This document shows, piece by piece, positions 2,004 through 56,463 of a DNA stretch of 64,000 nt. The notes beneath the pieces are model-generated. The model saw only the letters and a list, made by a program, of their open reading frames with translations, searched no databases and had not been told where the DNA came from. The translations under genes and the position numbers were made by a program. This DNA comes from Kiritimatiellia bacterium (GTDB lineage Bacteria; Verrucomicrobiota; Kiritimatiellia; RFP12; JBMNHG01): assembly GCA_050950285.1 (NCBI GenBank), contig JBMNHG010000002.1, forward strand, positions 886,654-950,653, in the 5' to 3' direction. Each line of letters starts with the position of its first letter. The stretch's first letter is position 1.

Positions 2004-3488
2004 ATGGAAGCGCTTATACTGACGGGCTGGGGCTGGAAGGAATACCCCGTGGCGGCCGCCGTTGTTCTCAAGGGCATGGGCGGCATTGCCGAGGTCATGG
2101 GTATGAGCCGGCGTAGGCTCCCCGAGTTTCTCGAATCATACGGGGGCAGGGCGAGGCGGATCGTGCTGGTTGGCATCAGCCTGAGCGGCGATGAGCCGCG
2201 CCTCGCGCAGGCGCTCAAGGCGCTCGGGAAGCGTGGCGTCGGGGTGACGTGGATCAGCGCCATTGATTTCACACCCGCACAGGCGGACACCATAGCACCG
2301 CATCTGGAAGCGTTCCTTTGCCTTGACGGATCGCTGCTCGAAGCCGCGGGGCGTTTCTGCGGCGTTGACGCGGCGGTGTACGCCCCCTATGCCGAAGAGG
2401 GCAAGCGAACCACACCGGATGTCCGCGCATGGCACGAGCTGGTTGATGCCGCCATGTACGCCTATCGCAACTACCAGGACGAGGAATCCTACCCGAAGGC
2501 CATCCGCTATCTCGCCGCGGGCGTCGCCGAGAAGGCATGGGATGACGACGCGAAGCGCGTGGTTGCGCACTACCGCCGCTACGGCGGACGCGAGCTGGTC
2601 GGGAAGAGCGCGGCGATGCGGACACTACAGGAACGGATCAACCGCATTGCCACATTCCCTGATGCGCGGGTGCTGATCCTCGGCGAGAGCGGAACCGGCA
2701 AGGAGACGGTCGCACTGCAGATCCACAACAAGTCCGCGCGGCAAAACGAGCCGTTCTATGCCTTCAACTGCGCCAGCGTGACGCCCGAACTGCTGGAGAG
2801 CCGGTTCTTCGGACACGAGCGCGGCGCGTTCACGGGAGCGGACAAGCGGAAAGCGGGGCTTTTCGAGCTGGCGAACGGCGGCACGCTGTTCCTGGACGAA
2901 ATCGGCGAGCTTCCGCTGGAGGCGCAGGGCCTTCTGCTGCGCGTCCTCGATGGCGGGCGTTTCCTGCGCATGGGCGGGAGCGAGGAGATCGCCGTCGATG
3001 TCCGGCTCGTCACGGCCACGAACCGCAATCTTCCGCAGCGTGTCCGCGAGGGCCGGTTCCGCGGGGATCTCTTCATGCGGCTCAACGTCGTCCAGATCCG
3101 CATTCCCCCGCTGCGCGAGCACAAGGACGACATCTGGGACATTGCCGACGGCTGGTGGCTCCAGCATCACAAGCGGCACCTTGCCGAGGAGCAGATTGCC
3201 GCGCTGATGGAATACGACTATCCCGGCAACGTGCGCGAGCTGCTGAACCTGCTCGAGCGCGCCACCGTTCTCGGCGAAACCGATTTCACCGCGCTCGTGA
3301 ACGAGCACAGGGAGATGAACGCCGGACTCGCGGACAACGCCTCCAGCGAACTCGCGTCCGCGCCCGACGAGCTCGATGCGGCGATCCGCCTCCACGTCCG
3401 GCGCGTGTTCGACAAGTTCGGCCAGAACACCTCCAAGACCGCCGCCGCGCTCAAGGTGTCGCGGAACACGGTGAGGAAGTATCTATAA
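2004..3488 (+). CDS. Sigma-54-dependent transcriptional activator (NtrC/PspF-type AAA+, Fis-type HTH) with an atypical N-terminal domain
   Basis: Walker A GESGTGKE, GAFTGA loop, TLFLDEIG, FRGDLFMRL, YPGNVREL and C-terminal HTH (NTSKTAAALKVSRNTV). Confidence 0.95.
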   Translation: MEALILTGWGWKEYPVAAAVVLKGMGGIAEVMGMSRRRLPEFLESYGGRARRIVLVGISLSGDEPRLAQALKALGKRGVGVTWISAIDFTPAQADTIAPHLEAFLCLDGSLLEAAGRFCGVDAAVYAPYAEEGKRTTPDVRAWHELVDAAMYAYRNYQDEESYPKAIRYLAAGVAEKAWDDDAKRVVAHYRRYGGRELVGKSAAMRTLQERINRIATFPDARVLILGESGTGKETVALQIHNKSARQNEPFYAFNCASVTPELLESRFFGHERGAFTGADKRKAGLFELANGGTLFLDEIGELPLEAQGLLLRVLDGGRFLRMGGSEEIAVDVRLVTATNRNLPQRVREGRFRGDLFMRLNVVQIRIPPLREHKDDIWDIADGWWLQHHKRHLAEEQIAALMEYDYPGNVRELLNLLERATVLGETDFTALVNEHREMNAGLADNASSELASAPDELDAAIRLHVRRVFDKFGQNTSKTAAALKVSRNTVRKYL

Positions 3489-3495
3489 GGAAGCA

Positions 3496-3510
3496 TGGCA
3501 CGAATAATGC
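3496..3510 (+). promoter_or_regulatory. Sigma-54 (-24/-12) promoter
   Basis: TGGCACG-AATA-ATGC with exact GG-N10-GC spacing, just after the activator stop codon and about 50 bp before the next gene. Confidence 0.75.
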
Positions 3511-3561
3511 CCTTAATGAAAGGATGAATCCGCCGTCAACGCTTCTGGAAAGGAATGAGTG

Positions 3562-3918
3562 ATGAGTGCGCTTTGCAAGTACTGTGGACAGAAATACAAT
3601 GACGCGAGAACGCTGCTGGGCAACTCGTGCAGCCGACATCCGGATGGGCGTGGCAGGCACGCCCTGTTCGAGGGCGACACGGAAGGCCCGTTCTACTGCG
3701 TCCACTGCGGACAGAAGTACGGCGATCTGCGGTCGCTTGTCTCGAACTCGTGCACCAGGAACCCGGACGGCCGCTACCACGAGCCGTACGACGGGGATGT
3801 CGCGGGCGATTTCACGTGCAAGTACTGCGGCCGCACCTATCGCGACATCAGGAACATGGTCGCGAACTTCTGCCCCAAGAACCCGGTTCGCGGCGGGCGC
3901 CACTCCCCGGCGCGGTGA
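3562..3918 (+). CDS. Small protein of three tandem CxxC-x13-C-x~9-H putative zinc-binding repeats
   Basis: Repeats CKYCGQKY..C..HP..H, CVHCGQKY..C..NP..H and CKYCGRTY..C..NP..H. Alternative GTG start at 3559. Confidence 0.8.
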   Translation: MSALCKYCGQKYNDARTLLGNSCSRHPDGRGRHALFEGDTEGPFYCVHCGQKYGDLRSLVSNSCTRNPDGRYHEPYDGDVAGDFTCKYCGRTYRDIRNMVANFCPKNPVRGGRHSPAR

Positions 3919-3924
3919 GTTGTA

Positions 3925-5391
3925 ATGTCAACCGAGTGCCTGCTAAAGAGGGTGAAGAGCATGGAAAGTGATCGTCCAATCAAGAGTTTCTTTGTCAATC
4001 TCGCGTCTCGGTTGAGCGATGAGAACGACTTGTCGGATTTCGTGTGGGCATTGTGCCAGGCAAACGAGGGATTCAAGCAGTTCGTTCTCGATTTCTTCTT
4101 TCGGGATGAGCAGGGCGGGAAACTGAAGGCATCCGAATATCGCGTTGACCGCGAGGTGTCGCTGGCCGGCGGCAGGCCTGATTTTGTGATCACGGGAACG
4201 GATGATAAGAAGAACCGGTATTTTATCGAGATCAAGAAATGGGATCGTAATCATCACTTCAAGCAATACTTGAAGGAATTGGAAAAGGACGGCCATGATA
4301 TCCGACGGCTCGGCTATATTACGCAGTATGTGCTTGATCCGTCCAGTCTTGCAAACGGGGACAGGAACGTTGCACGGAATGGAGACAAGTGGGCTTGCCC
4401 GGTTAAAACATGGGGCCAGTTTCAGGAGGAATTGAAGCGTTGCATGGATAGTCCGGAGTCGTATCCCTGGGCGGCAGGAAGCGATGTGGCGGGGCTCTAT
4501 TGGTTTGCCCGGGCCACATGCCCCAATTATGACGCCGTAACGGAATTTACGCTTGATATCAACCGCATCAAACGTATTCAGGCATTTGCCAAGGCCTTGG
4601 ATTGGGTCGTAAAGCAGGAAGTCAATGTCGCTGTCAGCGGGCTGGACAAGAGTGTTCAGTTGAAAGGTTATTACGGCAAGCGTGATTATGAGCATTCGCT
4701 TCGTTACATCGGACGCTATTTTAAAGCTTCAGGGCTATATGAGGACCCAGTCTGGGGCTGGCTTGGCGTGTATTTCAGCAAAGATGATATCAGCGAAGAC
4801 GATGCAACGTCGGGGCTGACTCTTGAGTTTGAGAATGCTCAATGGTGGGGGGCGCCGGTTTTCGACCATCTTAAGTCGAAGAAGTCCGTACTTGATTATT
4901 GCGAACCTCTTGAACTGGATGACACCATAGAGGTGATGCAGGAGCGGATTCGTGCGTCCTTGTCAAGGATGCTTGCGAAGTGCCGGAAATCGGAACCGGT
5001 CAATAAGGCAAAGTGGGAGTCGCCTGACGAATTTATGGACGCAAGGCGAATCATGCTGTTCCTTGATCAGAATGTGCTGGTGAACAAGGATGATCTACCT
5101 ATTGTGTTCAGCTCCGGCTCTGTGCCTGGCGATGAATTTTCCTCGTCGGGCTGGATTGGAAGATATAGTTATGTGTCCTTGGAAGGTGGCGCTCCGCAAT
5201 TGATTTGGGTTGGGGTTCGATACGATGGCGTGAAGTTGACTGATCGTTCGACTCAAAGAAAGGTTACCGCAGACGGCAGCCAAGTGTTTTTGGATATTGA
5301 CGGCAAACAATATGTTCTATACAAATCGACGGAGTGGAATGCAGAGGAAATTAGGAGACGTATCCACGAAGAGCTATCAAGCCGCGCTTGA
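3925..5391 (+). CDS. PD-(D/E)XK nuclease superfamily protein with long C-terminal extension
   Basis: ENDLSD...REV...GRPDFVI...FIEIK...KQY pattern; visibly lower GC than its neighbours. Alternative start at 3961. Confidence 0.75.
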   Translation: MSTECLLKRVKSMESDRPIKSFFVNLASRLSDENDLSDFVWALCQANEGFKQFVLDFFFRDEQGGKLKASEYRVDREVSLAGGRPDFVITGTDDKKNRYFIEIKKWDRNHHFKQYLKELEKDGHDIRRLGYITQYVLDPSSLANGDRNVARNGDKWACPVKTWGQFQEELKRCMDSPESYPWAAGSDVAGLYWFARATCPNYDAVTEFTLDINRIKRIQAFAKALDWVVKQEVNVAVSGLDKSVQLKGYYGKRDYEHSLRYIGRYFKASGLYEDPVWGWLGVYFSKDDISEDDATSGLTLEFENAQWWGAPVFDHLKSKKSVLDYCEPLELDDTIEVMQERIRASLSRMLAKCRKSEPVNKAKWESPDEFMDARRIMLFLDQNVLVNKDDLPIVFSSGSVPGDEFSSSGWIGRYSYVSLEGGAPQLIWVGVRYDGVKLTDRSTQRKVTADGSQVFLDIDGKQYVLYKSTEWNAEEIRRRIHEELSSRA

Positions 5392-5639
5392 ACCGCCTAA
5401 ATCCCTTGAAACCGAACAGCACGGGAAATGCAATTGAACCCGCTGCCCAACGGAAACTCCTGCAAAACGCCTCGACCGTGATGGGTGATGGTCGGAATTT
5501 GAGCAGGTGGTAGACTTCTGAACAGCAAGCGCTGGAAAATGCCGGATCGGGTGAAGGTGTAAGTGCGAAGCACCCACTTAAACCACCCGCTTAAACCCAC
5601 TCGTAAACGGCACACTTAAACCACCCGCTTACTCCAATT

Positions 5640-5726
5640 TTCGCGCTTTTCGCGTATTTCGCGGTTCCCCTTTCCCGCAGCACCATCTAAAGCATTCGCG
5701 TGCATTGGCGTCCATTCGCGGTTCCC
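5640..5726. repeat. Two short arrays of 9-10 bp TTCGCG-type repeats, each ending in TTCGCGGTTCCC
   Basis: ttcgcgctt-ttcgcgtat-ttcgcggttccc and cattcgcgtg-cattggcgtc-cattcgcggttccc. Confidence 0.65.
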
Positions 5727-5733
5727 ATACCCG

Positions 5734-5749
5734 TGGCACGCCTTCTGCT
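5734..5749 (+). promoter_or_regulatory. Second sigma-54 (-24/-12) promoter
   Basis: TGGCACG-CCTT-CTGCT, near consensus TGGCACG-N4-TTGCW, with exact GG-N10-GC spacing. Confidence 0.75.
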
Positions 5750-5761
5750 AAATACTGGTGT

Positions 5762-5959
5762 ATGAACAGTGAATGGGCGGAGCCCCTCGGGCTCGACAAT
5801 CCGAAGCACCAGCTCGCGGCGGTTCCCGTGGCGAATGCCGGGGCGGTCATGGAGCCGTGCGCGGGACGCAAGGCGGACCTCCGCGACGGGATGCGGATGA
5901 GGATGCGAACCGCGATCGCGTTCGGTTCCGATGGCGGCACTGGCGGGGAGGAGCTGTAG
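5762..5959 (+). CDS. Possible 65-aa leader ORF or hypothetical protein
   Basis: ATG lies at about the predicted sigma-54 start site; its stop is 1 nt before the ATG at 5961. No recognisable motif. Confidence 0.3.
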   Translation: MNSEWAEPLGLDNPKHQLAAVPVANAGAVMEPCAGRKADLRDGMRMRMRTAIAFGSDGGTGGEEL

Positions 5960-5960
5960 G

Positions 5961-7838
5961 ATGGCGGCAGCGCAAGACGAACTGCGCGAGATGGTCCTCG
6001 CCGGAGCCAGGTCACGCTGGGGCTGGCTGACCGAGGACATCCGGACGCGGCTGGACTATGAGCTCGGAACTGTGGCGGAGTGCGGACAGGTGGACTACAT
6101 CCTCATGGCCGCACGGCTTGCAGCCGCCATCCGGGCGGGCGGCGGACGCATCAGCCCCGGACGCGGCGCTTGCGCAGCCTCGGCGGTGCTCTATGCGCTC
6201 GGCATCACCAATGTCGATCCTACGAAGTACGATCTCCCTTTTGAGCACTTCATGTTGCCCGAGCGCGAAAGGCAGCGGCCTGTGCTTATCGACACGGACG
6301 CCAGGGGGAACGTGGCGGCACGCGCATTCCTCACCGATGCGTATGGTGGTTACGAGGAACTGCCGCTTGACAAAGGCGCACCGCAGTTTCTCAGCGTGAA
6401 CGGATGGGAAATCTGTGTCACGCTCAATCCAGGCGTGAACCGTCTCTCGGACATGTTAGAACTCATCCGCGAGACCACGGGGGAGGTCGTTGACACCGAT
6501 CGTCTTCCCCTGGACGACAGAGCAACACTCGAGGCTTTCCGGCGTGGCGAGCTTGTCGGGATTCCACGTTACGATCATCCGGCCATCCAGAAGTCCCTCT
6601 CCTCGCTTCCGGACATGACGTTCGGCGAGCTGGTGAATCTCGGCACCCTTTCCTTTTCGTGGCTTTGCGAGCAGCGCGACGCCTACATCGCCCGCCGCCT
6701 CGGCCGGGCCAAGGCGCCTGTCGTGCATCCGCTGCTGGACGGCATCCTCGATGAGACGTGTGGCCTGGTCGTTTATGTCGAGCAGATACTGCTCATCCTG
6801 CGCCGGCTCGCCGGTTTCACGCGGGGCGAGGCCTACCAGTGCCAGCGTGCCATCGGGAAGCGGAAGCGCGAGACAATGGAGCAGTTCGCGCAGAAGTTCG
6901 TTTCCGGGTGCATGAACAATCCGGCTTTCCGCATTGGCGAATGTGCCGACGAGGAACAGGCGACCGGCGTTGCCGAGGCCCTCTGGAACGACATCGAGCA
7001 GAATGGGTGGCGCGCATTCATTAAGGGCCATGTCGTGGCTGCCGCCCGCCTGGCGTATGAACTGGGGTATCTGCAATGCCATTATCGTTCCGAGTGGATC
7101 TATCTCGACGGAAAGGAAGTGCGTCCTGAACCACGGCGCTCGGTCGCAAGTGAGATGGTGGAGCTCTATCACATCTCCAACGCTCTCGATAGCGGATGCC
7201 GCGTGACGCTCCTCATGCGCCATGCCGAGCGTCCGCCTCTCGGGCCGGGGGACACGACGTCCGGCGAACGGTTGCCGCTTACGATGGACGGCATCGGGCA
7301 GGCGCGGGACTTCGGCGCGTTCCTGTCGGGCCGGGTTTCTCCCGCGGGGGTTCGGATATTCGCTGGGAACACGCTACGCGCGATCCAGACCGCCGAGGTG
7401 ATCAGGGACGCCCTTGAGGACGGTTCCGGGACGAGGGCGCGCGACATCGGGCTTGTTCCGGAACTCGGCAGTGATTCGCCGTTCTTCGGGGAGCGCGACG
7501 AGCGGATGGCGCTGATTGCCGGGGGACGGTACCTGGAGCGGCTGAACGACTACTTTGGCACGGGGATCCAGCAGGGCTACCGTCCGCTGGCGGCCGCAAC
7601 GGATGCGATGGAGCGCGCCCTGGAGAGGCTGGAGGGGCGGCACAAGGAGGTCGTGGTCGCCATCACCCACGACATCAACGTGGCGGCATTCCTCGCCGGA
7701 CGCGGCGTTGTCGCCGCCTTCGACGAGGAGACGTGGCCGCACTACGGCGATGCGGCGGTGATCATCCGCAAAGACGAGGGCGAAATCGAATACGGCTACT
7801 ACCGCCGTGATTACACACCGGACGACGAAGTTGATTAG
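5961..7838 (+). CDS. Degenerate DNA polymerase III alpha (DnaE) palm/finger fragment fused to a histidine phosphatase domain
   Basis: DnaE-like: RLDYEL..., PGRGACAASAVLYALGITNVDP.KYDLPFEHF, LPLDD, ILDETCGLVVYVEQI...LAGFT.GEA...RAIGKRK, FIKGH. Phosphatase: LLMRHAER, RAIQTA, ITHD. GAGGAG RBS upstream. Confidence 0.8.
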   Translation: MAAAQDELREMVLAGARSRWGWLTEDIRTRLDYELGTVAECGQVDYILMAARLAAAIRAGGGRISPGRGACAASAVLYALGITNVDPTKYDLPFEHFMLPERERQRPVLIDTDARGNVAARAFLTDAYGGYEELPLDKGAPQFLSVNGWEICVTLNPGVNRLSDMLELIRETTGEVVDTDRLPLDDRATLEAFRRGELVGIPRYDHPAIQKSLSSLPDMTFGELVNLGTLSFSWLCEQRDAYIARRLGRAKAPVVHPLLDGILDETCGLVVYVEQILLILRRLAGFTRGEAYQCQRAIGKRKRETMEQFAQKFVSGCMNNPAFRIGECADEEQATGVAEALWNDIEQNGWRAFIKGHVVAAARLAYELGYLQCHYRSEWIYLDGKEVRPEPRRSVASEMVELYHISNALDSGCRVTLLMRHAERPPLGPGDTTSGERLPLTMDGIGQARDFGAFLSGRVSPAGVRIFAGNTLRAIQTAEVIRDALEDGSGTRARDIGLVPELGSDSPFFGERDERMALIAGGRYLERLNDYFGTGIQQGYRPLAAATDAMERALERLEGRHKEVVVAITHDINVAAFLAGRGVVAAFDEETWPHYGDAAVIIRKDEGEIEYGYYRRDYTPDDEVD

Positions 7839-7839
7839 T

Positions 7840-8559
7840 ATGGAGACAACGATGGACTGTTGCTGGAACATGATCCGTTCAAACCTTGTGGAAGCATGGG
7901 GTGAGCTTAATGATCTCCGCCGACGTCTCCGTTATTGCGAGACGGGAGAGCTTCCCGACCCCCCGGAATACGGGGCGTGGCTTGAGAGGCAATGGCGGAA
8001 AACGACAGAGCACAGCCTCCTCTTTGGCAAAATGGAACACGCCTATCATCATCTCAACTTCGGCTGGAACTGTCGCAGGTTTCCCGAAAAGCGGGTCATT
8101 GCGTGTGCAAGACGGGATTATGTGGAATGGCAGATATTCCCGAGGGACTGGCCTGAACTCTGGCCGTCCGCGGGCAGATACACAGGGATGCCGGGAAAGG
8201 TGGGGGACGGCAAGGTGTGCTACCCCACAATGCGCATACCGCTGGACGAGGTCTCCATGACGCTCGACGACGTGATCAACGATATGGACGCCACATTCCC
8301 CGAGTGCGCCGAGGCGCGTACCGGTCCTGGGAAGATCCGTAGAGGGCGTCCGCCAATGGACGAGGAAGGACTCGGTGTCCAGATGCGGCATATCTATATT
8401 TACATGAACTATGCGTGGAATTCTAGGCATTCCCGAAAGCTGACCTTGCCCGGAAAGGACGCTGAATCGGCGGCGACCATGAAGCGAAATTGGCAGTTCC
8501 CACGTGAGTTCAAGGATTTCTGGCCGAAGAAACAGGATTACGAACCCGGCCACAAATAG
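7840..8559 (+). CDS. Hypothetical protein made of two homologous helical domains
   Basis: MEHAYHHLNFGWNCR...FPRDWPELWP matches MRHIYIYMNYAWNSR...FPREFKDFWP. Starts 1 nt after the previous stop; the last residues and stop come from a MITE. Confidence 0.65.
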   Translation: METTMDCCWNMIRSNLVEAWGELNDLRRRLRYCETGELPDPPEYGAWLERQWRKTTEHSLLFGKMEHAYHHLNFGWNCRRFPEKRVIACARRDYVEWQIFPRDWPELWPSAGRYTGMPGKVGDGKVCYPTMRIPLDEVSMTLDDVINDMDATFPECAEARTGPGKIRRGRPPMDEEGLGVQMRHIYIYMNYAWNSRHSRKLTLPGKDAESAATMKRNWQFPREFKDFWPKKQDYEPGHK

Positions 8560-8690
8560 CGCTGCGCACGGAGATTCAGGCATTGGGAGCTGGAATTTAG
8601 AGTTGGGAAAGGGGCACGGACATTCCTGTCCGTGTCACGGGTTGGAAAACCCGTGCCCCTGTTTTGCAGCATGAATCGTGGCCGAGTTAG
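8541..8690. mobile_element. 150-bp MITE-like element, copy 1 (TA-flanked, terminal inverted repeats, internal REP-like double hairpin)
   Basis: TA|CGAACCCGGCCAC...GTGGCCGAGTTAG|TA; near-identical to 45460-45609. Confidence 0.8.
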
Positions 8691-8715
8691 TAACAGGAAT
8701 AAGACAGAGGAGACA

Positions 8716-9327
8716 ATGAACAACATGCACAGAACAACAATGCGTATTCGCCCCATTTTAATGGTGTCCATGGCGCTTGCCGCGGTGGCAGTGGGGTGCA
8801 ACTCGGGCAGGCAGGAAGAACCGGAAGCCCGCTATTCAGATGAATTGAGTTCGTACATCGAATTTTGCCGCTCGATGGCGCTGGAGTCCGATGAAAAGGA
8901 TGTTTCGCCCATGTGGGAGCAGCAGTCAGGTGGAGCATTCCAGGAGTTTACAAAGACGTTCAAGATTATCTACGGCGATGCGGACTACCTGAGCTTCTAC
9001 GCAACGGAGGCATCCTATACGGGCGGAGCGCATGGCCTGACTGAGATTACCGTCGGCACGATTTGCCGGAAGACCGGCAAGCTGCTGACGCTTGATGATG
9101 TTTTCCCCGTTGCGGAACGTGCGGCGTTGACGCGACAGCTTCATCAACTCGTTGCCGAGGCGATCGGCGAGGAGAACATCCTCTATGACGTCCAGCCCCG
9201 TGAGAATTTCTATCGGGCTGCGGACGGCTGGCATTTCGTCTACAATCCCTACGAGATCGCCGCCTACGCCCAGGGCGTGATCGATGTGGTGGTGAAGCGG
9301 GAGACACCGGGAGCCGCAGGAAAGTGA
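8716..9327 (+). CDS. Lipoprotein of the RsiV/PdaC-like DUF3298/DUF4163 family
   Basis: Lipobox AVAVG-C, YTGGAHG and FVYNPYEIAAYAQG motifs; GAGGAG RBS. Confidence 0.8.
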   Translation: MNNMHRTTMRIRPILMVSMALAAVAVGCNSGRQEEPEARYSDELSSYIEFCRSMALESDEKDVSPMWEQQSGGAFQEFTKTFKIIYGDADYLSFYATEASYTGGAHGLTEITVGTICRKTGKLLTLDDVFPVAERAALTRQLHQLVAEAIGEENILYDVQPRENFYRAADGWHFVYNPYEIAAYAQGVIDVVVKRETPGAAGK

Positions 9328-13662: not shown

Positions 13663-13743
13663 CGCTTGTCCACGTATACTCGTCTCATGCCCATCGCGAT
13701 GGGCACGATACCCCACATCGCAACGACGAAAGAAGGATTCCAC

Positions 13744-15726
13744 ATGAAACAAGGCTGGCGCTGGTACGGGACAAGCGACCCCATCTCCCTCAAAGAAATC
13801 CGCCAGGCGGGCGTGACGGACATCGTCGCGGCCCTCTACGAGCGCAAATGCGGCGAGGTGTGGCCGGTGAAGGAAATCCAGGCCCGCCAGCTGGATGTCG
13901 CGAAGGCCGGCATGGCGTGGACGGTTGTCGAGTCCCTGCCCGTCCATGAATCGATCAAGACCCGGACGGGCGATTTCCGGAAGTACATCGCCAACTACAA
14001 GAAATCCCTCCAAAACCTCGCGGCGTGCGGCATCAAGGTTGTGTGCTACAACTTCATGCCCGTGCTCGACTGGACGCGCTCGAACCTCGCGAAAGAGCTT
14101 CCCGACGGCTCGACGGTCCTCCAATACGACGACGTCGAAGTCGCGGCCTTCGACCTCTTCATGCTGCGCCGCCCAGGCGCCGCGAAAGACTACGGGAAAG
14201 AGGTCCGCGAAAAGGCGAAGGCCCTCTTCGGGACGATGTCCGAAACCCGCCGCAAGCAGGTGGCCGAATCGATTTTGCTGGGGCTCCCGGGAACCGTGGA
14301 CAACCTCACGATTCCGCAGTTCCGCGATTTGCTCGAGACCTACAAGGGGATTGACGACCGCGCCCTCCGCGAAAACCTGTATGCGTTCCTGGACGAAATC
14401 CGCCCGCTTTGCGACAAGCTCGGCATCCGCATGGCCATCCATCCCGACGATCCGCCGCGGCCGATTTTCGGCCTGCCCCGCGTGATGTCCACCGCCGCCG
14501 ACTTCCGCGAACTGTGCGAACGCATCCCTTCCGACGCCATCGGGTTCACCTTCTGCACCGGCTCCCTCGGCGGCAACCCGGAGTCGGACGAGGTCGCGAT
14601 GTTCGCGGAATTCGCCCCTCGCATCCACTTCATCCACTTCCGCAACGTCGTCTATGCCGAGGGACGGACCTTCCGCGAGAGCGAATGCCACCTTTCCGGC
14701 AAGGTGGACATGGCGCGCCTGATGCGGTTGCTCGTGAAAGAGGAAACCCGCCGCGGGGAAGCCATCGTGGTCCGCCCCGACCATGGCCGCTCCATGGAGA
14801 TCGACAAGGGGCGCGACTGCTATAGCGGGTACGCCTACGGAGGCCGTCTCGTGGGGCTCGCGGAATTGCGCGGGCTGGAACACGGCATCCGCCACGGAAG
14901 CGACATCGACGGGAAGGTCGTGGTGTGTACCGGCGCTGCCGGCGTGCTTTGTTCGGCGCTGGCCGAAGACCTGCTCGTACACGGCGCGAAGGTGGCGGCG
15001 CTCGACCTTCGCGGGGACGTCGCGAAAGCGTTCTGCGAATCGCTCGCCGCAAAGGGTCTCGCCGAAACCCTCCCCATCGAAGCGGACGTGCTGGACAAGC
15101 CGACCCTCGAGGCCGCCCGCGACGCCGTGCTCGCGAAGTGGGGGCGCATCGACATCCTGGTCAACGGCGCCGGAGGGAACCATCCGCGCGGCACGACGCC
15201 GGCGGAACAGATGACCCCCGGCACCCCCTGGGACGACACCTTCTTCGGCCTCGACATGGCGGGCTTCGAGTTCGTGAACAAGCTGAACTTCATCGGGACG
15301 CTCCTGCCCTGCCAGGTCTTCTGCAAGACGATGTGCGACCAGGGTGGCGGCAGCGTGCTGAACTTCTGTTCGATGGCCGCCTACCAGCCCCTCACGAAGG
15401 TGGCGGCCTACGGAGCCGCAAAGGCTTCCGTCATGAACTTCACCGCGTGGCTCGCGACGCACCTGGCGCCGATGGGCATCCGCGTGAACGCGCTTGCCCC
15501 CGGCTTCTTCATCACCGACCAGAACCGCTTCCTGATGCTGGAGAAAGACGGCAAAACCCCCACCGCGCGAGGCAACAAGGTCATCGCGAAGACCCCCATG
15601 CGGAAGTTCGGGCAGCCAAGCGACCTCTTCGGCGCCGCGCGCTATCTCCTCTCCGAAGACGCCAGCTTCGTCACCGGCGTGGTCCTCCCCGTCGACGGAG
15701 GCTTCGTCTGCTACTCCGGCGTGTGA
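13744..15726 (+). CDS. uxuA: Fused mannonate dehydratase (UxuA) and SDR-family D-mannonate oxidoreductase (UxuB-like)
   Basis: UxuA motifs WRWYG, CYNFMPVLDWTR, IHPDDPP and RPDHG continue in frame into SDR motifs TGAAGVLC, NGAGGN, YGAAK and VDGGF. Confidence 0.9.
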   Translation: MKQGWRWYGTSDPISLKEIRQAGVTDIVAALYERKCGEVWPVKEIQARQLDVAKAGMAWTVVESLPVHESIKTRTGDFRKYIANYKKSLQNLAACGIKVVCYNFMPVLDWTRSNLAKELPDGSTVLQYDDVEVAAFDLFMLRRPGAAKDYGKEVREKAKALFGTMSETRRKQVAESILLGLPGTVDNLTIPQFRDLLETYKGIDDRALRENLYAFLDEIRPLCDKLGIRMAIHPDDPPRPIFGLPRVMSTAADFRELCERIPSDAIGFTFCTGSLGGNPESDEVAMFAEFAPRIHFIHFRNVVYAEGRTFRESECHLSGKVDMARLMRLLVKEETRRGEAIVVRPDHGRSMEIDKGRDCYSGYAYGGRLVGLAELRGLEHGIRHGSDIDGKVVVCTGAAGVLCSALAEDLLVHGAKVAALDLRGDVAKAFCESLAAKGLAETLPIEADVLDKPTLEAARDAVLAKWGRIDILVNGAGGNHPRGTTPAEQMTPGTPWDDTFFGLDMAGFEFVNKLNFIGTLLPCQVFCKTMCDQGGGSVLNFCSMAAYQPLTKVAAYGAAKASVMNFTAWLATHLAPMGIRVNALAPGFFITDQNRFLMLEKDGKTPTARGNKVIAKTPMRKFGQPSDLFGAARYLLSEDASFVTGVVLPVDGGFVCYSGV

Positions 15727-21339: not shown

Positions 21340-23688
21340 ATGCATCTACGTCCCCCATTCGGACACCACCTCCGGCTCGCGATTCGCGGCGCCTCCCACG
21401 CGCCGTGCATCCGCTTCACCCTGGAGAACTTCCCGGCCGGGTTCGCCGTGGACGGCGTAGCGCTGAAGGCCTTCATGGAACGGCGCGCGCCGGGGCGGGA
21501 CGACCTCTCGACCTCCCGCCGCGAACCGGACGAGATCGAGTTCCGTCGCGGCGTGGCCGACGGCCTCACGACAGGCGGCCTCATCGAAGGCCGCATCCGG
21601 AACACCGACGCGCGGCCCGCCGATTACGGCGTGGAACGGACCATCCCGCGGCCCGGCCACGCGGATTTCCCGCAATGGGTCGAAGCGGGGCGCATCCCGA
21701 CGGGGGGCGGCACGAACTCGGGACGCCTGACCGCAGCGCTCTGCGCCGCGGGCGGCCTCTGCCTCCAGTTCCTCGAATCCCGGGGAATCCGCATCGCCGC
21801 GCGCATCGAAAGCGTGCACGGGAACGCCGCCGATCCGGAGGCGGAAATCCGCGCCGCGAAGGACGACCGCGACTCCGTCGGCGGGCTCGTCGCCTGCTCG
21901 GCGACGGGAATGCCCCCTGGAATCGGCGGCGCGCTGTTCGACGGCATCGAGACCAGCCTGGCCGGCGCCCTGTTCGCCATCCCCGGCGTCAAGGGGGTCG
22001 AATTCGGGAACGGCTTCGCTTGCGCGGCCTTGCGAGGCTCGGAAAACAACGACGCCTTCACGGTGGAGGACGGAGTCGTCTCCACCACGACGAACCGCCA
22101 GGGAGGCCTTCTCGGAGGCCGCACCAGCGGCATGCCCGTCGAATTCCGCATCGTGTTGCGCCCGACGCCGACGCTCCCCAGGCCCCAGCCGTCCGTCGAT
22201 CTCGCGACCATGACGCCCGCGACCTGCACGATGGGCGGACGGCACGACCCGTGCATCGTCCGGCGGGCCGTTCCCGTCGTCGAGGCCGTGACGGCGCTTG
22301 TCCTCGCCGATGCGATCCTGGCGGCCGAGGCCGCGTCGCCCCGCATCTGCCTCACGCTCGTCGGCCCGACCCTGGAAGAGGATCTCGCCCAGTACCGCGC
22401 CCAGCGCTATTTCACCGACATGGTCGAACTGCGCGTCGACCTCCTCGCCGACCGCGACGCCTCCGCCGTCGCCGCCTTCCCCGCGCGCATTCCCGTCCCC
22501 GTTGTCCTGACGTTCCGAAGGAAGGCCGACGGCGGCGCCTACGACGGGGACGAAGCGACGCGCGAGACGTTCTTCCGGACGGTCCTCCGGGAGGCCTCGA
22601 CGCCCTTCGCCTACGTCGATTTCGAATCCGACTTCCGCCCGGACGGGCTCGCCGCCGCCGCCCGGGACGCCGGAACGCGGATCATCCGCTCCCTCCACGA
22701 CTTCACGGGCCCCGTCGAGGACATCGTCGAAACCTGCCGCCAACTGCGCGGCGCGACCGGCGACATCCCGAAGATCGCCTTCCTGCCCCGCTCGATGGCC
22801 GACGTCGCGCGCCTCTTCGAGCAAGCGCGCGATTTCACCGGGATGCCCCACATCCTCTGCGCCATGGGCCCGAGGGGGCTCGCCTCCCGGGTCCTGGCCG
22901 TCCGCACCCACTCGCTCCTCACCTACGCCTCCGTGGGAGGACTCGACGGACTCGGCCACGTGACGCCGCAGGAGCTTGTCCGGACCTATCGCATCCGGAG
23001 CATCACGCCCGAAGCCGAACTGACCGGCGTAACGGGATGGCCGCTGGCCGCGACGCGCAGCCCCGAGATCCACAACGCGGCCCATGCCGCCGCCGACCGC
23101 GACGCCATCATGGTGCCCTTCCCCGCGGAGACGGCCGCCGAAGCCGTCGCCTTCATGCGGGCGATGGGGATGCGGGGGCTGGCGGTCACCATGCCGCACA
23201 AGGAGGCCATCCTCGCCGAACTCGACGAAATCGCGCCCGAAGCCGCCCGGCTGGGCGCGGTCAACACCGTCCTGCAACGCCGCGGGCGCCTCGTCGGCCA
23301 CAACACGGACGACGACGGATTTGCGGAGGCCATCTCGGCCTTCGTCGGGCGGCCCCTCGCGGGGCTGCGCACGGCCATGCTCGGGGCCGGAGGGGCCGCG
23401 AAGGCGGCGGTCGCCGCGCTGGAACGCCTCGGCGCGACCGTCGAAGTCTTCCATCGGCGCACCCCCGGCCCGGGCTTCGATCTCTTCGTCAACGCGACGC
23501 CGGTCGATCCCATCCCCGACTATCGCTTCACGGGCGGGGAACTCGTCTACGACATGCTCTACGTGCCCGAGGTGCCGCCGCTCCTGGCGCGCGCCGCCGC
23601 GGCGGGCTGCCGGACGGAGAACGGCTTTTCGATGCTGCTGGCGCAGGCGCGCCGCCAGCGGATGATCTGGGAGGAGGAAGACGCATGA
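21340..23688 (+). CDS. aroC: Trifunctional chorismate synthase / type I 3-dehydroquinate dehydratase / shikimate dehydrogenase
   Basis: AroC: PRPGHAD, RDSVGG, IPGVKGVEFG, GRHDPC. AroD: ELRVD, YVDFE, SLHDF, DIPKIA. AroE: SPEIHN, VTMPHK, GAVNT, NTD, GAGGAA, NATP. Confidence 0.88.
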   Translation: MHLRPPFGHHLRLAIRGASHAPCIRFTLENFPAGFAVDGVALKAFMERRAPGRDDLSTSRREPDEIEFRRGVADGLTTGGLIEGRIRNTDARPADYGVERTIPRPGHADFPQWVEAGRIPTGGGTNSGRLTAALCAAGGLCLQFLESRGIRIAARIESVHGNAADPEAEIRAAKDDRDSVGGLVACSATGMPPGIGGALFDGIETSLAGALFAIPGVKGVEFGNGFACAALRGSENNDAFTVEDGVVSTTTNRQGGLLGGRTSGMPVEFRIVLRPTPTLPRPQPSVDLATMTPATCTMGGRHDPCIVRRAVPVVEAVTALVLADAILAAEAASPRICLTLVGPTLEEDLAQYRAQRYFTDMVELRVDLLADRDASAVAAFPARIPVPVVLTFRRKADGGAYDGDEATRETFFRTVLREASTPFAYVDFESDFRPDGLAAAARDAGTRIIRSLHDFTGPVEDIVETCRQLRGATGDIPKIAFLPRSMADVARLFEQARDFTGMPHILCAMGPRGLASRVLAVRTHSLLTYASVGGLDGLGHVTPQELVRTYRIRSITPEAELTGVTGWPLAATRSPEIHNAAHAAADRDAIMVPFPAETAAEAVAFMRAMGMRGLAVTMPHKEAILAELDEIAPEAARLGAVNTVLQRRGRLVGHNTDDDGFAEAISAFVGRPLAGLRTAMLGAGGAAKAAVAALERLGATVEVFHRRTPGPGFDLFVNATPVDPIPDYRFTGGELVYDMLYVPEVPPLLARAAAAGCRTENGFSMLLAQARRQRMIWEEEDA

Positions 23689-48040: not shown

Positions 48041-49611
48041 CACTAGCATCCCATAGGCTAAGCCGGAAACATTCCGGTTCCCATGATTGGCACCTATTAT
48101 GCGGGGGGGGGGTGAAAACAGTCAACCCCGTAATTCCGCAAAAAAATATGTCGGCTTCGGAGCCGTTCGCCTGTAGCCTACAGGCGCATGAAAAAGTTGA
48201 TTCCCCAATTGCTCGGGGGCACGCCCCCGAAGCCGACGAAGACAGAATACACCGTGCTGCGGCAGCTCGTCCAATGGATTCCCTCCGGGATGATCCAGCG
48301 GCTGGCGGACGAGCACAAGCTCGACATCCGCAAGTGGTCCGCGGTGAGCCATGTGGTCGCGCTGATGTACGGGCAGCTCGCGGGCTGCGACAGCCTCAAC
48401 GGGATCGTGGACGCGGCCCGCGTCCACGAGGGCGAGTGGCGCAACATCCGGGGCGCGGAGCCGCCGAAGCGCAACACGTTCTCCAACGCGAACCGGCACA
48501 GGGACGCGGACATGGCCGAGCGGCTCTACTGGGAGGTCTTCGACCACCTGGCCGGGGCCTGCCCCGGCTTCGGGGAGTACCGGAGGCACAAGGGCTTCCT
48601 GGCCCGCCTGAAACGCGGGATCTTCGCCATCGACTCCAGCACCATCAAGCTGAGCCTGAACTGCATCGACTGGGCGCGGCACCGCAGGAGGAAGGCGGCC
48701 GCCAAGCTGCACCTGCGGCTCGACGTCGGCAGCCGCCTGCCCGCCTTCGCCGTCGTGGAGGACGCGGCGCACCACGACTCCGTGCGAGCGGAGGCTCTCT
48801 GCGCCGGCCTGAAGGCGGGGGACGTGTGCGTCGCCGACCGCGCCTATACGGACTTCGGCTTTCTCGAAGGCCTGCGGTCGCGCGGGGTCTTCTTCGTCGT
48901 CAGGCAGAAGAAGAACATGCGCTTCAAGAGCGTGAAGACGCTTCCGAAAGGCGGTGACGCGTGCGTCGTCTCTGACGAACTCGTCGAGCCCGCCCTCGCC
49001 CGATCGAAGGGTCTCTATCCCTTCCCGCTGCGCCGCGTGACCGCGCGCGTCGTGGTGGACGGGAAGCTGAGGGAGATGGTCTTCCTGACGGACAATCTCG
49101 ACTGGAGCGCGCGGACCGTCGCGGAACTCTACAAGGCCCGGTGGTCCATCGAGCTGTTCTTCAAGGAACTCAAGCAGACCTGCCTGATCCACGACTTCGT
49201 TGGGTACAACGAGAACGCGGTCAGGTGGCAGGTCTGGACGGGGCTGCTCGTCCACCTGCTGCTGCGCTTCATGCGCCACGTCGCGGGCTGGGAACTGAGC
49301 TTCTCGCGGCTCGCGGGCGTCGTGCGCGCGGCGGTCTGGGTCAAGCGCGACCTAACCGCGATCCTCAAAACCTATGGGACAGCACCCCGGCCCAAGCGGG
49401 GTGAGCCAGCCGCGAAACCCCCGCCTTTACAGGCGTTTTTCGACTTCTGGCGGTTCGACTATGGGACAGCAAGCCCGTAAATCCCAAGGAAATCGCGAAA
49501 CGGCCGGCCCCGCCGGGAAAACCTCCAACCCGAAACCCCAAAAGAGACCTCAAAAACCCAAGCAATTCCGCATGGGTAAGGGTAAATTGTGCCGCCTATG
49601 GGATGCTAGTG
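48041..49611 (+). mobile_element. IS4-family insertion sequence (1571 bp) with 18-bp perfect terminal inverted repeats
   Basis: CACTAGCATCCCATAGGC at 48041 and GCCTATGGGATGCTAGTG ending at 49611, enclosing a transposase. Confidence 0.92.
48188..49480 (+). CDS. IS4-family DDE transposase
   Basis: IDSSTI, AKLH, DRAY and LYKARWSIELFFKELKQ (YREK) motifs. Confidence 0.95.
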   Translation: MKKLIPQLLGGTPPKPTKTEYTVLRQLVQWIPSGMIQRLADEHKLDIRKWSAVSHVVALMYGQLAGCDSLNGIVDAARVHEGEWRNIRGAEPPKRNTFSNANRHRDADMAERLYWEVFDHLAGACPGFGEYRRHKGFLARLKRGIFAIDSSTIKLSLNCIDWARHRRRKAAAKLHLRLDVGSRLPAFAVVEDAAHHDSVRAEALCAGLKAGDVCVADRAYTDFGFLEGLRSRGVFFVVRQKKNMRFKSVKTLPKGGDACVVSDELVEPALARSKGLYPFPLRRVTARVVVDGKLREMVFLTDNLDWSARTVAELYKARWSIELFFKELKQTCLIHDFVGYNENAVRWQVWTGLLVHLLLRFMRHVAGWELSFSRLAGVVRAAVWVKRDLTAILKTYGTAPRPKRGEPAAKPPPLQAFFDFWRFDYGTASP

Positions 49612-49760: not shown

Positions 49761-49970
49761 TCATTTTGGTTTTTTGTGGCGATCTTCTCGACGATCTAGC
49801 CATGCGCCTAGGAGTTTCAGGCCGAGCCAGTACAGATGCAAAGACGCAACTCCCAACACGGCGGCAAGCACCCAAGCGGCAACTCCGTCCATTCCCGTCC
49901 GTTCCGTCAACAGATATGCTGACAGAACAGTAACGCCGATGAGAACAGACAATGGCAGCAACCCGAACAT
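49761..49970 (-). CDS. Small 2-TM protein, candidate immunity for RHS cassette 3
   Basis: 69 aa with two hydrophobic helices; starts 2 nt after the toxin stop. Confidence 0.6.
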   Translation of the reverse strand: MFGLLPLSVLIGVTVLSAYLLTERTGMDGVAAWVLAAVLGVASLHLYWLGLKLLGAWLDRREDRHKKPK

Positions 49971-49972
49971 GG

Positions 49973-51322
49973 TTACTTGTTCCTCCCTGGTCCTGCATCA
50001 GCGCGATACTGGCCCGCTGCTGAAACGCCAGTGAAAGTCGCGGCAGCGCCACCCATACCCAATGGCGTCGGTCCCGTCGAGAAGGTCTGTCCGATACCCA
50101 ACCACCAACCGGACGCCTCCGGCCTCAACGCTTGTCGCAATCCTTGGTCAGCCACAATTGCGGCTCCTCGGTCAACAGGGTTGGCGTACAAGGCCGAGTA
50201 AAAAGCGTTCGCATCGTCAGAAAGCGTCTTCTGACCAATTTCGTGGTAAAGAACTTGTTTCCAGAGAGGTGCGTTCGCGGCTTGGGATGAGAGGGCAGAC
50301 TGAGCACGAATCGCGGTAGTTCCGACGCCAGCACCAATAGAGCCGACGACGCTGATGCCCGCATCGACAAGGTTTGCGGTGTTCTGCGACATACCCGTCG
50401 TCTCTTGCAGGGCCACAGACGTTAGTGAATCCACCTGCTCGTCTGTGAACGCCTGCCGAACACCGGCCTGGAACTGATCAATGCCATGAGCACCGACTGC
50501 GATACCGCCAGCAGTTCCTGCCGCTCCCGCGACCAGACCCACACCAGTCCAGCTAGAAGCTGCCCCAAAAGCGGCGCTTGCGGTGGCTAAGCTGTATCCT
50601 GCTGCCGCTTCTAAACCCCCGCCAACGGCTCGCATCACTCCAAACGTCTGATTCCAACTCCACAGACCGAGGGGATCATAGTAGAGGAACGGCGCGTTCA
50701 TGGCGTAGGCGTAGAGGTTCGGGCCGCCTGCCATCCCGAGGGGGTCACGTGCGGTCCAGCGCTGTAGCCTTGCGTGATAGTAGCGGTGCCGCGCGAAATA
50801 CAGGTTCCCGGCGGCGGGCCGCAGGCCCACGCCGCCGCACCACTGGTACGGCGTATCCGTCGCCCCCGTCCTCGCCATGACCTCGCCGTAGGGCGAGTAG
50901 AACCATTGATCGGTCGGCACGTTGTTTGTGTCGCTAAGCGCCAGCGTCGAGCCCTGGCCGTCGTGATGGAAGTAGCGGATTGTTCCGTCGGCCTCAACCT
51001 GCGCGACCACGCCACGCCCCCACACGAACCGGCGGATGAGCGCGCCGTTTCCGTCCAGTTCGGCCAACGGTCTGCGCAACGGATCGGCGTAGTCCAGCAC
51101 GAAGACGGTGGTGTTCGTGCTGCCGGATTCAACGGTGACGGCGGCGACGCGGGATCCGTCGCCCGCGTAGTAGTACGCCGCAAAGCCGGACGCCGACACG
51201 ACGGAGACCAGCCGGTTTTCGTAGTCGTATCCGTATGTGTTCTCCCCATCGGTCGTCAGATTGCCTTCATCGTCATGGGCGGGCGTCTTCTCGGTCCAGT
51301 CCTGAACGCCGGGATTCGCCTT
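49973..51322 (-). pseudogene. Orphan RHS core plus toxin C-terminus (cassette 3), no convincing start
   Basis: RHS homology begins at KANPGVQDWTEKTP; YYDPLGL cleavage motif; Gly/Ala-rich C-terminus. Confidence 0.75.
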
Positions 51323-51380
51323 GTGGGGTCCGCCGAGGGAACCATAGGCGGCACCGGAATATCCACTGTTATATTGAAGA

Positions 51381-51638
51381 TCAATTATCACTCGGTCCTT
51401 CTTTCCTGCGGGGGGATGTAAATACATAAAGAATTGCAAATACACCCAGCAACGCTACCCCACCAAGTAGCCCACCAAGGCCCCGAAGATTCAAATGGAT
51501 GTCCGATTGAGCGGCCCCAGATACGCGAAGAAAAACCCATAGGTCAACGGCAAGCCGCACAAGACCTACTGCCGCAAGAAGAATTGAACCGATGGCCAGC
51601 AATACAAAGAGTGATTTTAGGTTTATCATAGGTGTCAC
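51381..51638 (-). CDS. Small 2-TM protein, candidate immunity for RHS cassette 2
   Basis: GTGA overlap with the toxin stop; two hydrophobic helices. Confidence 0.65.
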   Translation of the reverse strand: MTPMINLKSLFVLLAIGSILLAAVGLVRLAVDLWVFLRVSGAAQSDIHLNLRGLGGLLGGVALLGVFAILYVFTSPRRKEGPSDN

Positions 51639-53371: not shown

Positions 53372-53541
53372 GCTTGCACGTTCCTCAACCATTCGGGTTC
53401 CAACCGGTCCGGCCAGACGGCCGATAACCAGTACAGGAACGACTTGAGATACTGGCCGTCGGTGATGGAAGCTTCCACGTCCAGGTTGTTCGCCGCGTCG
53501 TACTGGTACGCAACATGGGCATCCGTCTGCGCCGCCGAGTA
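53166..53541. repeat. ~376-bp direct repeat, apparently identical to 55946-56321
   Basis: Read-through comparison at offset 2780 bp. Confidence 0.9.
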
Positions 53542-53652
53542 GTCGGCGGATGTGAGCCGATGCTGCTTGTCGTAGCTGTAGGTGATCGTCGTTCCGGCAT
53601 GGACGCTCGTCACCAGCAGTACCAGCCCAAGGATCAATGTCGCTATCTTCAT
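53368..53652 (-). CDS. Mini secreted YD-repeat protein (94 aa), copy 2
   Basis: Signal peptide, YSYDKQHRLT and YQYDAANNL; GGAGG RBS. Confidence 0.8.
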   Translation of the reverse strand: MKIATLILGLVLLVTSVHAGTTITYSYDKQHRLTSADYSAAQTDAHVAYQYDAANNLDVEASITDGQYLKSFLYWLSAVWPDRLEPEWLRNVQA

Positions 53653-53657
53653 TTTGC

Positions 53658-54218
53658 TTACCTCCGATTTGGGAGACCTTCCGCCAGTCTCCTTCGATTC
53701 TTGAACAGCAGTGTTGCCAGCCCCAAGCCAAACAGAGCAACCGTGCCCGGCTCGGGGACCGTGGCCCACATTCCGATATCCACGCTGGATATGCCAACCG
53801 AACCAGACTCCCCTCTCAAATGAAAATCGCTTTGCCCATCAACCAGTGCCTCACATGGATGGCCCCATGATTGCGGTCTGGAATAGAACGACACTTCATA
53901 TGGCGAGTGATTGCCGGGTTGGCCATCCGGCGCACGGCTCTGAATCAACCCCATGTAGCCGTACTCGACAGGGAAATACGCACCCACCGTATCGCCAACA
54001 TCAAATAGATCTTCTTCAAACACAAGGTGAACGACTACTTGCTCGACGCTCACGAACGACTCTCCAAAGTCGACGAAGAAGTCCAACTGCCCCTCTTCGT
54101 CCAGTTGCCAGGTCTGCCCAGCTTCCGGCGTGAATTCATGCCAATAGAAGGAAGGTCCCGCAAATGCCTGCAAACACACGAAACAGAAGCAAAGGAGCAA
54201 GATGCACATTGGTTTCAT
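53658..54218 (-). CDS. PEP-CTERM sorting domain protein
   Basis: Signal peptide and C-terminal VPEPGTVALFGLGLATLLFKNRRR. Confidence 0.88.
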   Translation of the reverse strand: MKPMCILLLCFCFVCLQAFAGPSFYWHEFTPEAGQTWQLDEEGQLDFFVDFGESFVSVEQVVVHLVFEEDLFDVGDTVGAYFPVEYGYMGLIQSRAPDGQPGNHSPYEVSFYSRPQSWGHPCEALVDGQSDFHLRGESGSVGISSVDIGMWATVPEPGTVALFGLGLATLLFKNRRRLAEGLPNRR

Positions 54219-54499
54219 GGTCGCTCTCGCTTCTTGCGGGCCAATGTTATCAAGGCGAAGACAATCATTGGGACACCGCCTATATCAATGAGCAACAGCA
54301 AGAGCGATAACCAGCGGAACCCAACTGGCAACAACATGGCAACACCTACCGCAGCCATAGCTCCACCCAGCAGAGGAACACAGGAATGGGGCCGCTCTCG
54401 GTGACGAAGGACATAGTAACGAAATGGGAGAAACCAGTTCATGCATATGATGATTCCTCCAACAACAACGAGAACATGTGCTGTAACTTGCATTGTCAT
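54215..54499 (-). CDS. Small membrane protein, candidate immunity for RHS cassette 1
   Basis: About 3 TM helices; ATGA overlap with the toxin stop. Confidence 0.65.
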   Translation of the reverse strand: MTMQVTAHVLVVVGGIIICMNWFLPFRYYVLRHRERPHSCVPLLGGAMAAVGVAMLLPVGFRWLSLLLLLIDIGGVPMIVFALITLARKKRERP

Positions 54500-56151: not shown

Positions 56152-56321
56152 GCTTGCACGTTCCTCAACCATTCGGGTTCCAACCGGTCCGGCCAGACGG
56201 CCGATAACCAGTACAGGAACGACTTGAGATACTGGCCGTCGGTGATGGAAGCTTCCACGTCCAGGTTGTTCGCCGCGTCGTACTGGTACGCAACATGGGC
56301 ATCCGTCTGCGCCGCCGAGTA
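55946..56321. repeat. ~376-bp direct repeat (partner of 53166-53541)
   Basis: Read-through comparison at offset 2780 bp. Confidence 0.9.
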
Positions 56322-56432: not shown

Positions 56433-56463
56433 TGTCGTTACCTCCGGTTATTGTGGGCATCGT

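Follow-up and report, generated by a model that had tools for sequence, protein, structure and literature searches.

What does a sigma-54 activator with an atypical sensor respond to, and which genes does it switch on? The question is raised by a locus on contig JBMNHG010000002.1 of a Kiritimatiellia bacterium (assembly GCA_050950285.1), in which an activator gene is followed by two candidate -24/-12 promoters. We analysed a stretch of 64,000 nucleotides that contains this locus (contig positions 886,654 to 950,653; hereafter the window). Coordinates are those of the window, and genes, promoters and binding sites lie on the + strand unless stated otherwise. The genome assembly comprises 4.05 Mb, is 99% complete and contains a single rpoN. 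The activator, a tandem palindromic site and the promoters form a sigma-54 regulon that is found across the lineage and of which this locus is one local instance; it is a real regulon, and its activator belongs to an established class but has a sensor of a new kind. Taking all the evidence together, we consider it probable that the locus is a local copy of a regulon run by activators with a dead DHH sensor, in which damage-response and anti-phage genes are shuffled as cargo.

The activator gene (2004–3488) encodes a protein of 494 residues. The Sigma54_activat profile matches residues 198–365 with an E value of 7e-65, the AAA lid is also matched, and the Walker A (residue 227), GAFTGA (residue 274) and Walker B (residue 295) motifs are intact, in agreement with the initial annotation of this locus. 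The C-terminal helix-turn-helix (HTH) region gives weak matches to HTH_23 and HTH_30 and has three helices in the structure model, at residues 457–493. The ratio of nonsynonymous to synonymous substitutions (dN/dS) is 0.15 against a 96% identical relative. By its sequence the protein is a bacterial enhancer-binding protein (bEBP): it has an AAA+ domain with Walker A/B and GAFTGA motifs and an HTH, and it is accompanied by rpoN, -24/-12 promoters and upstream sites. Related activators were found at 56 loci in the species-genome collection, nearly all of them labelled Kiritimatiellia or Lentisphaeria. A profile of residues 1–196 has matches, some of them partial, in 72 of the order's 201 genomes; it also matches 7 of 151 genomes drawn across the class and 269 representatives in a large library at E 0.001.

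In activators of the bEBP type, the N-terminal sensor domain defines the signal that is answered. A Foldseek search with the whole protein returned AAA+ matches only, and residues 1–196 (2004–2591) were therefore modelled by themselves, giving a pLDDT of 94.5. Structure comparison of this model (VIA) gave the PAP phosphatase 8a8k as the best match (Z 14.1, rmsd 3.5, 176 aligned residues), followed by RecJ-Cdc45 (Z 12.9), three RecJ entries (Z 11.7–12.3) and a DHH domain (Z 11.1). Unrelated Rossmann-like folds had Z values below 10 and covered about 105 residues, whereas the DHH entries cover the whole domain. Foldseek also placed 8a8k first (E 9e-6), then a family II pyrophosphatase and RecJ. 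We take 8a8k, 6mtz and 5ghr to be DHH proteins. DHH clusters in the Atlas, at 0.80–0.81, are a lead only. No CARF title occurs among the best 50 structure matches listed. Sequence comparison was less sensitive: the PDB sequence search with the N-domain profile gave nothing below E 0.01, PF01368 (DHH) did not match the activator, and hhalign found no alignment with a single NrnA-like protein and a weak one (P 0.023) with a 30-row RecJ-type profile. On the structure model, the sensor has the DHH core fold.

In the register of the weak RecJ-type alignment, Glu13 falls on the second Asp of DxDG, Gly57 on the motif-II Asp, and Ser85-Ala-Ile on DHH. The segments TGWGWKEY, VGIS and WISA thus occupy the places of DxD, the motif-II Asp and DHH, and position 13 alone is acidic. 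Across 39 aligned sensor rows, position 13 is Asp or Glu in 33, Gly57 is kept in 38 and Ser85 in 33. The DHHA1 half is missing, as the AAA+ domain starts directly after the sensor, at residue 198. From the lost motifs we infer that the sensor is a dead DHH enzyme that has been turned into a sensor; the atypical sensor noticed at the outset thus appears to be a DHH fold lacking catalytic motifs and not the CARF domain of RtcR. Cdc45 is a dead DHH protein that serves as a scaffold. We found no description of a sigma-54 activator with a DHH sensor in the literature searched, mostly without subscription journals; the accessible text of PMC10333796 names DHH and sigma-54 activator terms in unrelated places.

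RtcR is switched on by tRNA fragments, according to the accessible part of PMC7790460. By analogy with that CARF sensor, our leading but tentative proposal is that the dead DHH domain now serves to bind a nucleotide or oligonucleotide with a phosphate end, derived from DNA or RNA breakdown. The N-terminal domain would free the AAA+ ring, and the sigma-54 promoters would be activated by DNA looping, as in the established bEBP mechanism (outlined in the part of PMC7175178 available to us). The genome contains two IHF/HU genes. The sensor could instead read a housekeeping metabolite of DHH enzymes, such as pAp, pyrophosphate or pApA, the defence-like cargo marking an insertion hot spot. We regard this as quite unlikely: the best structural match is indeed a PAP phosphatase, and the flanks of related loci are as rich in PADLOC matches as the regulated units (see below), but the Z values differ little among the DHH matches, and no gene of sulfur, phosphate or c-di-AMP metabolism recurs behind the promoters.

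The DHHA1 half binds the nucleotide in active DHH enzymes, and its absence from the sensor would fit another alternative, in which the regulon is the same but its sensor responds to envelope stress or to a partner protein, in a Psp-like circuit with membrane repair as its output. The commonest cargo of one activator clade points the same way: LRAT-like proteins (17 loci), DUF1232 (13), small acidic glycine-zipper proteins, dynamin pairs and one PspC. Among the neighbours of the activator, however, we saw neither a PspA-type gene nor any other constant partner, and the clade to which the window belongs carries mostly nucleases and NTPases. We therefore judge a partner or envelope signal unlikely, if somewhat less so than a housekeeping metabolite, and retain the phosphate-ended ligand as the working proposal.

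Both promoters proposed by the initial annotation are present with exact GG-N10-GC spacing: P1 at 3496–3510, 7 bp past the activator stop codon, and P2 at 5734–5749, with a predicted transcription start near 5760. P2 is identical in three related loci (L003, L065 and L066), and in L003 and L065 the zinc-finger gene is preceded by a P1 variant whose GG/GC spacing is unchanged. A decayed site, reading AG-N10-GC, lies at 5417–5432. Exact matches number three in the window against 0.60 expected, and 2 of 100 shuffles reach three; genome-wide, loose matches number 67 at the right gap and 35–53 at wrong gaps. The promoter count in the window alone is not decisive, as it does not exclude chance, and it is the comparative data that carry the case. 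Around the activator homologues (57 sequences, 744 kb) there are 72 sigma-54 motifs on the activator strand against 9 on the opposite strand, and wrong-gap controls give 2–11 matches. A scan for sigma-70 promoters and terminators gave nothing informative. The third GG-N10-GC match (48088) precedes an IS4-like transposase gene (48088–49480; DDE_Tnp_1 and DUF4372), a second copy of which lies about 20 kb further along the contig. Separately, a sigma-54-like sequence, TGGAAC-N5-TTGCT, is part of a multicopy element, probably the end of an insertion sequence, with 13 copies in the genome (e.g. C2:117249, C3:800995 and C8:736545).

The upstream regions of the related promoters share a second motif. 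Expectation-maximisation (EM) on 65 non-redundant upstream regions, with the window and its closest relative left out, yielded the palindrome TGGTCA-N5-TGACCA, usually doubled and present in about 0.87 of the training regions. The activator HTH would bind these tandem palindromes. In the window, one pair of 17-mers, 20 bp apart, lies at 1935–1971 and ends 32 bp before the activator start (18.7 bits, genome rank 3); it is a candidate autoregulatory operator, through which the activator may repress or tune its own gene. The other pair, at 5489–5524, has its 17-mers 19 bp apart, is the best match in the genome (26.9 bits, rank 1), is kept in L003 and L065, and is a candidate upstream activating site for P2. 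Neither site had been noticed in the initial annotation. The rank 2 tandem site (C3:191580, 21.5 bits) is upstream of a gene and has no sigma-54 site; it may be a chance match or a repressed target.

A tandem site precedes the start of 32 of 53 homologous activator genes, compared with 5 of 309 control genes, a count that is independent of the training (2 of the 53 are also near a training promoter). It accompanies 52 of the 63 training promoters and, within 160 bp, 9 of 12 promoters at 20 more distant loci that had been held out of training; the same distance limit gave 0 of 39 for sigma-54-like sites genome-wide. True RtcR-locus promoters also lack it (0 of 12), and the idea that it is a general RtcR operator was rejected on this count. 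The distances between site and promoter in relatives cluster at 31–33, 42–45, 51–55, 65–66 and 73–75 bp, and those of the training set fit a 10.5-bp period (R 0.83, n=52; kin not independent).

An exact pattern of site and promoter matches 17 of the order's 201 genomes, with 1 match for the reversed control. Fifteen of the 17 have the activator, 14 by the sensor profile and one, G314 from another family, with an activator cut at the contig end; the match in G241 looks like chance. Nine matches are on contigs other than that of the activator. Given rpoN, the enrichment of the promoter motif at activator homologues and a readable cognate site, the earlier proposal of a sigma-54 regulon run by the adjacent activator is well borne out at the level of sequence. 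It is also conceivable that the promoters are served by another activator and that the neighbourhood is coincidental, since the genome has three further sigma-54 activators (PAS, REC and FHA-like, as typed from their N-terminal sequences) and in one relative a CARF-type activator is the neighbour of the site. The placement of the site before the DHH activator's own start and its absence from other sigma-54-like sites make this very improbable. At the relative in question (L180, G250:C45), a divergent CARF-AAA+-HTH protein without GAFTGA stands opposite a strong site and promoter heading ClpP and an AAA ATPase.

The genes listed in the initial annotation are all present in the two units. Unit 1 begins with a protein of three C2CH zinc-finger repeats (3562–3918; CxxC-x12-13-C-x7-9-H), which is under purifying selection (dN/dS 0.12) and is a recurrent member of the regulon: full-length homologues occur in 11 of 200 other genomes, all of which have the activator, 7 within about 7 kb of it and often in the order KAP-ZnF-GmrSD, so that the expected conservation with the activator family is seen. 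Three homologues in the L062–L064 set look secreted, with signal-peptide-like N-termini that are odd for a zinc finger. The second gene (3925–5391; GC 0.50, which is low) is a strain-variable PD-(D/E)XK-type nuclease. The Pfam match is weak (E 3.5e-4, under the cut-off), and the E-PD-EIK-QxxY residues align in homologues, some of which are near activators (L007, L014, L114 and L181).

Unit 2 opens with a 65-codon open reading frame (ORF) at the predicted transcription start (5762–5959; dN/dS 0.5, indicating weak selection), which had been overlooked and may be leaderless; at 7 of 72 related promoters an open frame begins with an ATG at offset 13, counted from the -12 C, which suggests leaderless mRNAs. 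It is followed by a degenerate DnaE palm/finger fragment fused to a histidine phosphatase (5961–7838), as first described. The DnaE part is 37–40% identical to the genome's own dnaE product, a full copy of which is encoded elsewhere, and is without the PHP, thumb, OB and clamp-binding parts. About 100 residues are absent between its two matched segments, the third Asp motif is replaced, and a D/E-T-D remnant of the catalytic acids is left. If the catalytic residues have the roles that we assume from E. coli DnaE, the fragment does not possess the three catalytic aspartates and the full palm and thumb of an active DnaE polymerase. The same fusion recurs at 52–93% identity (P0270, P0271, P0274 and P0275), and its dN/dS between close strains is 0.34–0.55; by these comparisons it is old, being whole at 52% identity, and weakly selected between close strains. 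Among relatives, G235 has the phosphatase half as the first gene after a site, and L012 and L127 have a DnaE fragment fused to an FtsK-like ATPase; L126, considered as a further DnaE fragment, proved to be the phosphatase half. At L182:9107-10001, 2.7 kb upstream of a site and promoter, a DnaE with an intact third Asp motif stops after the fingers, about where the DnaE half of the window fusion does.

The next protein (7840–8559) is helical and internally duplicated, as claimed: its internal alignment scores 79, compared with 55 for the best of 500 shuffles. A single-repeat homologue is the first gene behind site and promoter in L181, and in L065 and L066 an internal deletion has removed most of the gene. 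Overlapping its end is a REP-like repeat of about 155 bp (8538–8693, no strand assigned) with dozens of genome copies, 90–97% identical and some in tandem arrays, which is not found at this place in L065 and L066. The unit probably ends with a DUF3298/PdaC lipoprotein-like gene (8716–9327), also missed earlier, homologues of which are in site and promoter units of L005, L010 and L012. Judged by its upstream elements, P2 is thus a well-supported target in this strain, heading the small ORF, the DnaE-fragment/phosphatase fusion, the helical protein and the DUF3298 gene.

In the related loci, sixty units with site and promoter were found in the first set alone. They contain GmrSD, KAP and other AAA ATPases, PD-(D/E)XK, DEDDh and PLD nucleases, Schlafen proteins and FtsK-like ATPases, as well as dynamins, MoxR/vWA, LRAT-like, DUF1232 and PspC proteins and many small unknowns. 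Each of the window genes has relatives among them. In G314, the order is activator (72% identity), zinc-finger gene (69%), nuclease (33%), an 83-codon gene, site and promoter, and a single-repeat helical gene. In the 96%-identical relative (L003/L065), the low-GC nuclease gene is swapped for a unit of site, promoter and a 102-codon gene. The fixed module implied by the initial annotation has to be given up: a close relative has exchanged the nuclease, two close contigs have lost most of the helical gene, and the cargo consists of short units drawn from a shuffled pool, whose turnover is fast on these sequence comparisons. An integron cassette array was considered and rejected (best integrase TIGR02249 score 78 bits, cut-off 265). 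Genes for a double-AAA ATPase are some of the most frequent ones downstream of site and promoter (L099, L102, L111, L115, L124, L132 and others). Close to one homologous activator, a sigma-54 promoter is immediately followed by the gene of a JukA homologue (L032:6185-7037).

Several observations weigh against a lineage-wide regulon with damage-response or anti-phage cargo operating at this locus. The tandem spacing was set to 20–22 bp initially, at which the window pair 5489/5508 scored 8.1 bits, and was widened to 19–23 bp after this 19-bp pair had been missed; among the tandem sites of relatives, 18 of 101 have a 19-bp spacing. The held-out distances show no significant helical phasing (R 0.4, n=9). 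P2 and its upstream site are 209 bp apart, compared with mostly 31–75 bp in relatives. At least two of the 17 pattern matches are training sites (L129 = L019, L134 = L007) and kin are not independent, while the G250 match adjoins the divergent activator of CARF type, and its genome gave no match to the DHH activator. Six zinc-finger homologues in three more distant genomes, including the three that look secreted, have no promoter or tandem site upstream. P1 has no single cognate site above 7 bits within 420 bp here, and none in L003. Finally, PADLOC v2.0 at E 0.01 gave 0 families for the five cargo proteins of the window, and PADLOC matches are as frequent outside the regulated units of relatives as within them: they were obtained for 14 of 92 representatives of the units, for 15 of 102 genes in flanks at distances above 3 kb, and for none of the 32 other genes of the window. 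This comparison used one representative per cluster, with 74 of the 92 unit representatives at least 100 residues long and 102 of 164 flank candidates sampled; several of the matches are to generic domains.

The lack of a cognate site near P1 led us to consider read-through for unit 1. A distant site could act on P1 by looping and so drive the zinc-finger and nuclease genes, or these genes could be transcribed from the activator's own promoter; the latter is suggested by G314, where the zinc-finger gene follows the activator after 15 bp with no promoter between. The same facts are compatible with a family regulon that is real but partly decayed in this strain, P1 being an orphan, unit 1 read through, unit 2 drifting and the five genes unrelated passengers. 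This has further points in its favour: low-complexity repeat DNA with a 19-bp direct repeat lies between site and P2 (5554–5727, no strand assigned; copies elsewhere in L003 and a high summed contig depth in public runs), the decayed promoter at 5417 is close by, the dN/dS values are 0.34–0.55 for the fusion and 0.5 for the small ORF, and the helical gene is deleted in two close contigs. The activator and the zinc-finger gene are under purifying selection, on the other hand, close relatives retain both site and P2, 209 bp amounts to nearly 20 helical turns, the fusion is whole at 52% identity, and four of the genes stand in the same order in G314. We consider partial decay somewhat doubtful, though a more serious contender than any of the other alternatives, and prefer a functioning local copy of the regulon.

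As to the output of this regulon, enrichment of the regulated units in defence genes over their flanks is not borne out by the PADLOC rates: the neighbourhood is island-like, and the units are no richer in PADLOC matches than the flanks. The defence reading comes from the types of cargo and from the analogy with RtcR-like CARF activators. On these grounds, the odds slightly favour a plug-in pool, each unit with its own site and promoter and the whole rich in nucleases, NTPases and small membrane proteins, that acts as an inducible damage-response or anti-phage toolkit. Of the earlier idea of an analogous damage or anti-phage module, the plausibility stands, given the cargo types in relatives; PADLOC lends it no match for the window cargo and no enrichment over flanks. 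The same zero families agree with the earlier remark that this gene combination was not recognised as a named system.

Elsewhere in the window, an RHS cluster occupies 49761–63975 on the - strand: a 2024-residue transglutaminase/DUF6531/RHS protein precedes repeated C-terminal modules that are orphans and come with small partner genes, the GC content being low, and from its sequence the cluster looks like a bacterial polymorphic-toxin array. Two further ORFs are fusions, one of UxuA mannonate dehydratase and a short-chain dehydrogenase (13699–15726), the other of chorismate synthase, type I dehydroquinase and shikimate dehydrogenase (21340–23688). Four public RNA-labelled runs contained only related-strain contigs, with small word shares, and have no bearing on expression or habitat.

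The locus bears on the open question of how defence genes are induced, in a lineage that is abundant and barely studied in gut and digesters, and here activator, operator, promoters and a small shortlist of ligands can all be read from the DNA. With the signature of site and promoter, members of the regulon can also be located at a distance from the activator gene, which offers a guilt-by-regulation route to new stress and defence genes. In its most far-reaching form, which we regard as speculative, the regulon would be a second nucleotide-sensing sigma-54 alarm parallel to RtcR, in which the dead DHH domain binds 5'-phosphate oligonucleotides, nanoRNA or single-stranded DNA ends arising from phage infection and induces a cassette-like, fast-turnover defence regulon. 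If so, the signature would mark dozens of unannotated genes, among them those for the zinc-finger, helical-repeat and DnaE-fragment fusion proteins, as defence candidates, and the DnaE-fragment fusions could be decoys for phage anti-polymerase proteins.

How does the locus compare with known systems? The window fusion resembles DnaE (Pol III alpha) in its palm and finger segments, and differs from it in the parts that are absent and in the fused histidine phosphatase. Residues 1–196 are modelled with the fold of the DHH phosphoesterases RecJ, NrnA and PAP phosphatase (8a8k) and of Cdc45; unlike the phosphoesterases, the sensor has DxD, the motif-II Asp and DHH replaced, is without DHHA1 and is fused to an AAA+ domain. 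PspF is similar in its adjacent sigma-54 targets, tandem upstream sites and stress output, and one relative has PspC behind the site, but PspF is without an N-terminal sensor (according to the accessible text of PMC4012209). Unlike the phage-shock regulon, no pspA was seen near the activator, and the TIGR02974 score is 238, below the cut-off of 444. RtcR, the CARF-AAA+-HTH activator of rtcBA, is closest in the AAA+/HTH part, for which RtcR_PspF2 is the best PADLOC match (316 bits). The PADLOC and NCBIfam RtcR models match the activator only from residue 192–200 on, however, in keeping with the modelled DHH sensor; there is no adjacent rtcBA operon and no rtcBA in the annotated cargo, the RtcR promoters are without the tandem site, and PF06956 (RtcR domain) has no match in this genome, while it matches 38 of 201 genomes of the order. 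In a tree of 27 AAA+ rows, from which the motif filter had missed the divergent CARF protein and P0135/P0167, the activator family and RtcR group apart (15 and 8 rows, support 98/99), and a sister relationship between the two is unsupported. RtcR/PspF-like CARF activators sit before restriction systems and CoCoNuTs, as described in the accessible parts of PMC4012209 and PMC11090510, and the present activator resembles these: like them, it joins a sigma-54 activator to a Rossmann-like sensor, as modelled, and appears to head genes of nucleic-acid conflict.

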